DNA from: Octopus sinensis
Lineage: Eukaryota
Length of the DNA: 20,421 nucleotides
Direction of reading: 5' to 3'
Assembly (NCBI RefSeq): GCF_006345805.1
Contig: NW_021823949.1
Location: 1-20,421, forward strand
Shown: positions 3,952 to 14,729 of the stretch, piece by piece
Position numbering within the stretch: position 1 is the first letter of the stretch
Layout of the letters: every line of letters begins with the position of its first letter
Notes under the pieces: generated by a model
What the model was told of the DNA's origin: nothing
What the model saw: only the letters and a program-made list of their open reading frames with translations
The model's database searches: none
Program-made: the position numbers and the translations under genes

Positions 3952-3984
<33 letters not shown>

Positions 3985-4117
3985 TGTATGTATGTATGTA
4001 TGTATGTATGTATGTATGTATGTATGGGGAGGGTTTACGAAAAAAAACAAAAGGCGAAGACAGGTGGTGTACAAAACAAACAGATGTATTAGTATAACGC
4101 TCAGAAATAGAAAAAGT

Positions 4118-4153
4118 CTTTTACGTTTCGAGCCTGCGCTCTTCTACAGAAAG
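4118..4153 (-). ncRNA. Minimal type-I hammerhead ribozyme motif, A6U core variant
   Basis: CUUU-CUGUAGA-A-GAGC(GCAG)GCUC-GAAA-C-GUA-AAAG: stem I CUUU/AAAG, stem II 4 bp, palindromic ACGU stem III. Confidence 0.7.
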
Positions 4154-4420
4154 GGACACAAAAAAACAAGGAGAGAAACAAGGAGAGAAAAAATGTGTGT
4201 AGTGGCTAACAATCTATCATGGCGTCTCATGTATGTATGCATGGATGGATGGATGTATGTATGTATGTATGTATGTATGTATGTATGTATGTATGTATGT
4301 ATGTATGTATGTATGTATGTATGTATGGGGAGAGTTTACGAAAAAAAAAACAAAAGGCGCAGACAGGTGGTGTACAAAACAAACAGATGTATTAGTATAA
4401 CGCTCAGAAATAGAAAAAGT

Positions 4421-4456
4421 CTTTTACGTTTCGAGCCTGCGCTCTTCAACAGAAAG
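4421..4456 (-). ncRNA. Minimal type-I hammerhead ribozyme motif, A6U core variant
   Basis: CUUU-CUGUUGA-A-GAGC(GCAG)GCUC-GAAA-C-GUA-AAAG. Differs from the copy at 4118 only at the free N7 position. Confidence 0.7.
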
Positions 4457-4679
4457 GGACACAAAAAAACAACGAGAGAAAAAATGTGTGTAGTGGCTAA
4501 CCATCTATCATGGCGTCTCATGTATGTATTTATTTATATATGTATGTATGTATGTATGAATGTATGTATGTATGTATGTATGTATGTATGTATGTATGTA
4601 TGTATGTATGTATGGATGGATGGATGGATGGATGGATGGATGGATGGATGGATGGATGGATGAATGGATGAATGTAAGA

Positions 4680-5001
4680 ATGTGTCTGTTCTCGTTCCCT
4701 TTTTAATTTTAGAGTAAATCCTGACCGGCCTAATCCTTGGAAACAAATTTGTGAAAGTATTTTGTTTTAAACAATTGTGTAAACCTTGAAGGTCTTGAAA
4801 TTTTTTATAGTCCCTGATATCGTGATCATTTGTAGCATAGGAATTAATAATTTGTATTTTTTTTCTCTAAGATCCCAATCTCAGCAAATCTTTGCCCCAA
4901 ATATGTTGGTCTGTATCCTGTTGCTCCAATAAAAATAGGTACGAAGGGTAGCTAGGGTCCTGGATTTGTAAACTCTTTATCAATGGTCCATAGATGTCCT
5001 T
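4680..5001 (-). mobile_element. Frameshifted C-terminus and 3' UTR of an RLE-type (R4-like) non-LTR retrotransposon
   Basis: Joining three minus frames gives KDIYGPLIKSLQIQDPSY / FVPIFIGATGYRPTYLGQRFAEIGI / KLLIPMLQMITISGTIKNFKTF. This matches the RLE C-terminal pattern K..Y..L...PI(I/V)GA.G...LQ....GT, also seen at 12800-13015. Confidence 0.7.
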
Positions 5002-5097
5002 ATATATGTATGTATGTATGTATATATGTATATATGTATGCATGTGTTTGTGTGTATGTATGTGTGTGTTTATGTGTACATGTATGTATACGTGGCA

Positions 5098-5503
5098 CTC
5101 TCTCTTTACTCTTTTACTCTCTTGTTTCAGTAATTTTACTGTGGCCATGCTGGAGCACCGCATTTAGTCGAGCAAATCGACCCCAGGACTTATTCGTTGT
5201 AAGCCTTGTACTTATTCTATCGGTCTCTTTTGCCGACCCGCTAAGTTACGGGGCGTAAACACACCAGCATCGGTTGTCAAGCGATGTTAGGGGGACATGC
5301 ACAGACACTCAAACACACACATGTATATATACATATATACGACGGGCTTCTTTCAGTTTCCGTCGACCAAATCCACTCACAAGGTTTTGGTCGGCCCGAG
5401 GCTATAGTAGAAGACACTTGCCCAATGTGCCACGCAGTGGGACTGAACCCGGATCCATGTGGTTCGTAAGCAAGCTACTTACCACACAGCCACTCATACG
5501 CCT
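5098..5503 (-). mobile_element. Full-length tRNA-derived SINE, family A
   Basis: A box TGGCTGTGTGG (5482-5492), B box GGTTCAGTCCC (5439-5449), central microsatellite and (AAGAGTAA)-like tail. Multiple homologous copies in the window. Confidence 0.92.
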
Positions 5504-6302: not shown

Positions 6303-6497
6303 TGTGACCGCGTGTATACCGTTGTAATTTTTTTCCTCGGTCTTCCTTTTCTGGATCTTTCCTCTTTCCTATGTTTCTGACGAAGAGCTCCGCTCGAAAC
6401 GTAAAACCCTCCATCTTCCCTTCCTTCCTGAGCGTCCAATAATACTATATTGGTTCCACGTCCTCGTGTTGTTGTGTTTTCATGTTTTGATTAACTA
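6303..6497 (+). mobile_element. Short hammerhead-containing repeat (Penelope pLTR-like or retrozyme-like) embedded in microsatellite
   Basis: Contains the motif at 6373-6407. Shares its layout (motif, then CTGAGCGT..TAATAC, then T-rich end) with the 4026/4327 units. Confidence 0.7.
6373..6407 (+). ncRNA. Minimal type-I hammerhead ribozyme motif, canonical core
   Basis: GUUU-CUGACGA-A-GAGC(UCC)GCUC-GAAA-C-GUA-AAAC. Predicted cleavage at 6403/6404. Confidence 0.8.
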
Positions 6498-13615: not shown

Positions 13616-14729
13616 TAATGTATATAGTTATTTACTTCCATTTGTTTATTTATCTGTATATTTTATTGTTTTTAGTTTTGTTTATATTACCAGTTTATGG
13701 CAAATAAACAAAAACAAATAATAAACAAAAACAAAACAGCTCACAAATATATCTATCCTCATGGATTTTGAGGACTGAAAGTGCAGAGAATGTTCACCTT
13801 TAGGTCCACCTCAAATTTACGCCCATTTGATGTGAAATGTTCTGCAAGTTCCGTGGAACCACTGTTATTGTTCTTGACGTCGTGCCTATGTCCGTTAAAT
13901 GTTTTTGTAATCGCTCTGTTGTGCAACCAACATAAATCATTTTGTGTATAGTACATTCCGCTGCATACACCAAATGGGAATCCTTACAGGTCCCTCCTTC
14001 TGTGTAAATAATAACATTTCTGCTATAATTCTTGATAAAATTGGTCTTACTCATGTTATTGCACAACGAACAGGACTTACCTCTCTTATGGGTGTTTTGG
14101 CGGGAAGCAGCCGTCCGAAACTCCAATGGAATTTTTTATTAAAGATACCGGTCAGTATTTTTCTAATATTTCTGTTACGTCTAAAGGCTACAATAGGCGG
14201 AAGAGAAAATATTTGTCGGAAATGAGGATATTTTTCTGAAATATGTTGGTAACTGTGATGCAACACTTTTGAAATACCAGAGAAACTTCGGTGCCAGTTA
14301 ATCACTAAAGGAATTTGGCCATAAGCTCTTTTCTGACTGCTAGAATTAGATGTGAAAGTTTGATTATCTCTATTAATTTCAGTTATGTCATTCGCGATTT
14401 CCTTTAATCTTAATTCATTATAACTGCGCTTTACATAATGGGGCACAAAAGTATTTGAATGTTTCCAATAATCTCCAATATCTGTGCAAATCCTGGGACT
14501 TCGGATTTGATCTGGTTGTATGATGTGGATGATCAGAGCGGCGGTGGAGATAAATATGAAATGACATAGTTTTTACAAAATAACTCAGTCACTATTCTGC
14601 ATCCAGAAAACTTGACTTTTGTGTCCAAAAATTCGACGCAAGTTTTTGAAAAGATCGACGCTAATTTTTGAAAAGCACGTGATAAAAATAAAACTACTGA
14701 GTAATAATAATAACAATAATAGTAATGAT

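Follow-up and report, generated by a model that had tools for sequence, protein, structure and literature searches.

The stretch of Octopus sinensis DNA analysed here (the window, 20,421 nt of contig NW_021823949.1) carries two near-identical fragments on its minus strand that we assign to the 3' end of a Penelope-like element (PLE), both embedded in microsatellite sequence. The features at and around the pair are as follows.

3955 to 4026, no strand: (TATG)18 adjoining unit 1 on its 3' side
4027 to 4228, minus strand: unit 1 (the 3' unit), last 202 nt of the same Penelope-like element as unit 2
4118 to 4153, minus strand: minimal type-I hammerhead motif of unit 1, core CUGUAGA plus an extra A, U6 at 4146, predicted cut after 4122
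4229 to 4327, minus strand: spacer of 99 nt, (CATA)n(CATC)3CATG(CATA)2CAT, host microsatellite
4328 to 4519, minus strand: unit 2 (the 5' unit), last 192 nt of a Penelope-like element, ending in CTCCC
4421 to 4456, minus strand: minimal type-I hammerhead motif of unit 2, core CUGUUGA plus an extra A, U6 at 4449, predicted cut after 4425
4520 to 4676, no strand: (TATG)n/(TGGA)n microsatellite on the 5' side of unit 2
4740 to 4995, minus strand: LINE, frameshifted ORF tail with approximate ends, an unrelated neighbour
5095 to 5502, minus strand: SINE, 3' end approximate

When the pair was aligned, 189 of 208 columns were invariant, the differences between the units being 5 substitutions and two indels, of 12 and 2 nt. 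Microsatellite repeats of the same kinds flank both units and fill the spacer between them, and the coordinates match the initial annotation, which had described two near-identical units of about 200 nt with a (TATG)/(TGGA) spacer. The neighbouring LINE tail may be R4/Dong-like. Elsewhere in the window, a minisatellite with a 26-nt period (about 71 copies, 77% matches) occupies positions 933-2766, and positions 13824-14072 (-) give a weak tblastn match to a GIY-YIG domain (24%, E=1e-4), a putative remnant of another Penelope-like element.

Both units contain the layout CUUU-core-A-GAGC-GCAG-GCUC-GAA-ACGU-A-AAAG, with stem I formed by CUUU/AAAG, stem II by GAGC/GCUC and a palindromic ACGU; the stems, the palindrome, G8 and G12 are unbroken in unit 1 and in unit 2. 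Helix I, helix II with its G10.1-C11.1 pair, the extra base after A9 and the palindrome all correspond to the minimal type-I hammerhead of PLEs. The core does not, since position 6 is U in both units (CUGUAGA and CUGUUGA), where the hammerhead consensus CUGANGA has A. Minus-strand minimal hammerheads with an ACGU palindrome at 4118-4153 and 4421-4456 had been proposed from the start, and their stems and coordinates agree with ours, but the U at position 6 had been overlooked. The two H17 sites are 303 nt apart (4424-4122), so that an RNA spanning both units would give the 303-nt piece that had been predicted. An Rfam scan gave 62 matches at E<=1, with no hammerhead among them and only microsatellite noise. 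Folds of the single motifs were uninformative (z from -0.67 to 1.46), and a constrained double-hammerhead fold of the window pair lay 20.8 kcal/mol above the ensemble. Since four other natural tandems, one of them with an A6 core, gave values of 14.3-19.5 kcal/mol, the energy of the double-hammerhead fold does not discriminate. A third minimal hammerhead at positions 6373-6407 (+) of the window belongs to a sister family; its core, CUGACGA, is canonical, its stem I is GUUU/AAAC, and it sits in a solo 3' end of about 200 nt.

A DNA search of the 2.72-Gb genome with the unit returned 3,833 candidates; scores were computed for 40 of them, and the 29 nearest other copies were examined. These 29 copies have a common 3' end and variable 5' ends, and nearly all then continue into (TA)n-type sequence. 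Several longer copies carry about 1 kb of low-complexity 3' UTR upstream of the unit, preceded by the end of an ORF with the sequence CSRPRCRTC (L031) and a GIY-YIG domain (Atlas features 0.96; Pfam E=0.0025, below the curated cut-off). Walking further upstream, we found a PLE-type reverse transcriptase (RT; Pfam RVT_1 E=7.9e-6, below the curated cut-off) with the motif DKG in L102 and with YIDD also seen. The ORF has 272 homologues; among the 120 listed, identity is 44-63%, and RVT_1 is present in most and GIY-YIG in some. When copies were instead picked by their RT region, 16 of 20 ended in this unit. The broken natural copies thus show, at sub-cut-off Pfam scores, the order expected of an EN+ PLE, an RT followed by a C-terminal GIY-YIG domain in one ORF, and CSRPRCRTC in L031 provides the CX2-5CxxC linker before GIY-YIG that is used in the clade definition of Neptune/Nematis (PMC8557442). 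All five long copies are 5'-truncated, and none shows the upstream unit of a partial-tandem 5' pLTR. Judged by its sequence against the definitions given in PMC8557442, the element whose 3' end the unit forms is an EN+ Penelope-like element of Neptune/Nematis type. This 3' end also occurs in close inverted pairs (G000:C1:21925986(-)/21926252(+), L069 and L157/L158), as expected from the inverted insertions of PLEs.

The motif pattern matched the genome 14,389 times, compared to 0 times for the reversed control, and therefore lies beyond chance. Copies of the motif are nearly all solitary and end in (TA)n. The initial annotation had raised the question of whether a tandem arrangement and (TATG)n flanks are the rule across the genome, and neither is: within 1.5 kb of the 29 nearest copies we found 0 like copies, only a diverged 73% piece at 1.4 kb from L026, (TA)n is the usual flank, and a 3' flank starting CATACATA was found for 0 of the first 100 of 2,359 listed 3' ends. 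Solitary copies elsewhere, which had been named as a sign of chance local duplication, are what the nearest copies show. Searching with GCTCGAAACGT gave 40,204 genomic sites (control, 243), with 97 same-strand pairs at a spacing of 281-331 nt, to which alone the tandem rate refers; 17 of the 97 come from one array. A uniform expectation calculated from the site count is about 15 pairs, which makes the observed number an excess of about 6-fold. Among the first 30 pair loci, 8 rows (7 loci) had units at least 97% alike, 2 were at 90-91% and 20 were at 84% or less, the latter being mostly different subfamilies in a common microsatellite.

U at position 6 is the state of the whole family. Keeping the remainder of a 31-nt pattern constant, we counted 14,389 copies with U at position 6, 163 with A and 380 with C or G; all four bases occur at position 7. 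Samples that were picked without the core gave U6 in 16 of 16 RT-chosen copies and in 21 of 21 site-spanning copies, the latter from 30 picked by a downstream motif. A few A6 copies cluster in the tree (L063, L067, L068 and L070; L062 and L069), so small A6 lineages exist. We defined six subfamilies by downstream flank letters in 55 rows, and among them 2 of 36 motif columns (positions 7 and 17) differ, compared to 57 of 141 flank columns (Fisher p=2e-5); this comparison is partly circular, as 8 motif bases served as anchors for the rows and searches with the core pattern supplied many of the loci, and the T-rich flanks align poorly. As a subfamily state, position 17 is either A or U and never G. 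The sister family has 9,888 copies, and each of the first 100 listed carries A6; the family often shows a C at position 4 (CCGACGA; L139-L150) and a 3-nt loop II, and the outer pair of its stem I (GUUU/AAAC) is G-C, compared to C-G in the U6 family. Given the few varying motif columns and the stem-I pair swap, we take the fold to be real and under selection in the master elements. Among the titles listed, our literature search returned no paper on an A6U hammerhead family, the A6U change leading only to a paper on a twister (supplements were outside its scope, and Lunse et al. 2017 may include the variant), and PMC8557442 was the sole relevant paper returned for octopus Penelope-like hammerheads or Neptune. 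The predicted U6 hammerhead, present family-wide, is a variant of the known PLE hammerheads for which we found no precedent.

The two units share states that are rare or absent among the 29 nearest copies, including the G at the 5' junction (0 of 29), a loop C (1 of 29), T132 (3 of 29) and C183 (0 of 29). A 43-nt pattern with two of the private states has 3 genomic matches, 2 at this locus and 1 in a solo copy of another subfamily, and a genome-wide pattern search for a daughter copy of the pair's variant combination found none. The junction G was also considered as a copied cap; G is absent there in 29 of 29 other copies. In a tree of 75 of the 180 motif-bearing segments (subsampled, leaving out the nearest copies, the RT-chosen copies and the array of L137), the two units are sisters at 100/96. 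The order (CATA)n, (CATC)n, (CATA)n in the spacer is that of a 3' flank followed by a shortened 5' flank, so that the spacer would represent the two flanks of the original insertion, 3' joined to 5'. Since the private states, the sister placement and the spacer order coincide, one insertion was likely doubled together with its flanks. It is therefore probable, in our judgement, that the units are Penelope-like 3' ends derived from a single (CATA)n insertion that was later doubled in place, with an inherited hammerhead and little or no circular RNA at this locus. The RT/endonuclease of the element would have placed a short cDNA here by target-primed reverse transcription, and the (CATA)n/(CATC)n arrays on either side would then have exchanged unequally or slipped, copying the unit and its flank, after which the units would have drifted by 5 substitutions. 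The doubling step itself is one that we infer; a flank search for an empty or single-copy allele that would show the duplication directly returned only the window itself. The hammerhead would be inherited cargo here, probably yielding little or no circular RNA and no offspring.

Two independent insertions into one microsatellite would make the pair an example of the commonest kind of close pair (20 of the 30 examined loci), and the units do differ at position 7 and by a 12-nt repeat. This origin is nevertheless very unlikely and largely refuted by the shared 5' junction, which together with the four shared private states is found nowhere else, and by the sister placement in the tree. The least probable origin of all is an assembly artefact: the window is the entire content of a small unplaced contig of 20 kb that is rich in microsatellites, but 5 substitutions and a clean 12-nt indel exceed what is expected of a duplicated read. 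Local doubling, our preferred origin, faces a different difficulty in the genome-wide counts, since the roughly 6-fold excess of close pairs counts against the plain form of this reading, and tandem formation belongs to PLE biology (PMC2377424). Two tandems that resemble the window pair are a 4-unit (CATA)n array (L115/L116; G000:C2:46.709-46.711 Mb) and a dimer (L119), both of the window's subfamily, with CATA-rich spacers and periods of 304-420 nt. Each unit of the 4-unit array repeats the same host-flank signature. Since the private variants of these tandems are unlike those of the window, they are independent events, and doubling seems to come more easily where (CATA)n flanks are long. An RNA route could also fit three near-identical CATA-spaced tandems in a family where CATA 3' flanks are rare, and the enrichment of CATA spacers among tandems is the strongest point for the view of the initial annotation. 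Both tandems are better substrates than the window for testing the retrozyme idea. Another array (L137) and the dimer L117 have A at G8, so that arrays can grow without an intact core. The array at L137:2700-7100 (G000:C10272; 23 motif hits) consists of about 25 units of 165 nt, with a hammerhead-bearing 3' end plus (TA)n and cores CUGUCAA, and adjoins the end of a longer PLE copy; it resembles a retrozyme array but is probably inactive.

The SINE and the LINE tail do lie upstream of the units on the same strand, as had been noted, but the read-through transcription expected from them does not hold up, since Pol III coming from the SINE would meet runs of T5 (4935), T6 (4484) and T7 (4469) ahead of the first motif, and no more than an ORF tail is present of the LINE. 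The unit itself may be a better source of transcription than the SINE. The 5' ends of both units coincide with a sharp hot spot for 5' ends in the family: of 49 copies ordered by position, 12 begin within the same 11 nt, and none begin in the 92 nt above. Contigs from four sequencing runs presumed to be RNA, compared with the family copy L016, gave no called start or end sites. The hot spot lies at CAGTC/CAGAC before a conserved GCCATG, about 200 nt from the 3' end (L016, L073, L089, L076, L165 and L009). In 6 of 6 long copies that were folded, a hairpin ends at the hot spot, which overlaps its 3' arm. Transcription may begin at the hot spot from an internal promoter, such as that of D. virilis Penelope (PMC2377424), and unit 2 could then drive RNA across both motifs; such a start would count against plain doubling as a full account. 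A stall of the RT at the hairpin fits the hot spot too.

If unit 2 has an internal promoter, the pair could be an incipient non-LTR retrozyme, in which RNA across both motifs is cut at GUA by a double hammerhead and released as a 303-nt circle. The geometry fits, the predicted fold is nested, and the stems, the palindrome, G8 and G12 survive in both units; the Penelope pLTR carries an internal promoter (PMC2377424), the 5' hot spot may be the start site, and a pLTR origin of retrozymes has been proposed, with dimers that contain complete hammerheads meeting the definition (10.64898/2026.07.22.740005). Two consecutive type-I units are present, as in retrozymes, but both cores depart from the consensus at A6, and in the one ribozyme tested an A6C change lowered Mg2+ cleavage by orders of magnitude (PMC7151607), with no such strong slowing in Mn2+ (PMC7151607, PMC3088659). 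Even dimers of minimal PLE hammerheads cut weakly (PMC4209133), only 38% of the predicted circle is paired, compared to the highly self-paired circles of retrozymes (PMC7229834), and Pol III from the SINE would stop short. Spread as tandem monomer repeats, which defines retrozymes, is likewise missing: the unit belongs to the 3' end of a coding PLE, its nearest copies are solitary with (TA)n flanks, close pairs are few among the genomic sites and the pair has no daughter copies. The retrozyme element suggested for this locus is thus not borne out, and we regard the incipient form as improbable. A broader reading, in which a highly successful U6 lineage has kept a selected and still catalytic hammerhead through several successive subfamilies, perhaps with Mn2+, a protein or dimerisation, and transcribes its own end of about 200 nt, so that (CATA)n doublings are nascent retrozymes that release the 303-nt circle, seems to us unlikely.

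The pair may also have arisen by local doubling while its U6 motif is non-catalytic and is kept for RNA dimerisation through ACGU or for binding of an element protein, a reading to which we give appreciable but less than even weight. U6 is fixed in all six subfamilies, loop II is invariant across them too, and A6 copies are fewer than C6/G6 copies, so that most A6 copies look like decay; moreover, Naiad PLEs thrive without canonical hammerheads (PMC8557442). On the other hand, the varying columns 7 and 17 are the two that hammerhead chemistry leaves free, with 17 never G, and natural core variants retain low activity (PMC3088659). In the master element, the hammerhead would have been selected despite A6U and would most likely be a slow, dimer-dependent cutter of precursor RNA; we see a slow cutter and a non-catalytic role as about evenly balanced.

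The locus is ordinary, one doubled fragment among tens of thousands, and the U6 family matters more, the role of the hammerhead in PLEs being still open (PMC8557442). One genome holds large sister families with A6 (9,888) and U6 (14,389) and a constant remainder of the motif, and comparing their cleavage would test directly whether selection keeps catalysis. Since standard CUGANGA descriptors miss the U6 family, published hammerhead counts may be low. The parent element resembles the Neptune/Nematis EN+ PLEs of Craig et al. 2021 (PMC8557442) in its single RT ORF, CxxxxCxxC linker, C-terminal GIY-YIG domain, (TA)n target, hammerhead near the 3' end and mostly 5'-truncated copies, and differs from them in that no 5' pLTR was seen among the five long copies, all of them truncated. 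Its motif shares with the metazoan PLE hammerheads of Cervera and De la Pena 2014 (PMC4209133) the short helix I, the extra base between 9 and 10.1, G10.1-C11.1, the palindromic 15.2-16.2, the lack of a loop 3 and the prevalence of single motifs from truncated elements. Unlike those, it has U6 family-wide and a helix II of 4 bp, compared to 7-8 bp in schistosome motifs; the core change reported for PLE hammerheads in the available portion of that paper is U3-A8, not U6. With non-LTR retrozymes (PMC7229834; 10.64898/2026.07.22.740005), the pair shares tandem units of about 300 nt, one type-I motif in each, pLTR ancestry and a GC content under 45% (36% here). Retrozymes that were tested have canonical hammerheads, shown cleavage, abundant circles and tandem-repeat families, whereas the window holds a single private dimer with a variant core and a host-microsatellite spacer. 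A natural substitution at core position 6 also occurs in the A6C hammerhead of phage Bcep176 (PMC3088659, PMC7151607), which is one phage sequence with C6 that was assayed and found slow in Mg2+ and active in Mn2+, compared to U6 in more than 14,000 copies here.
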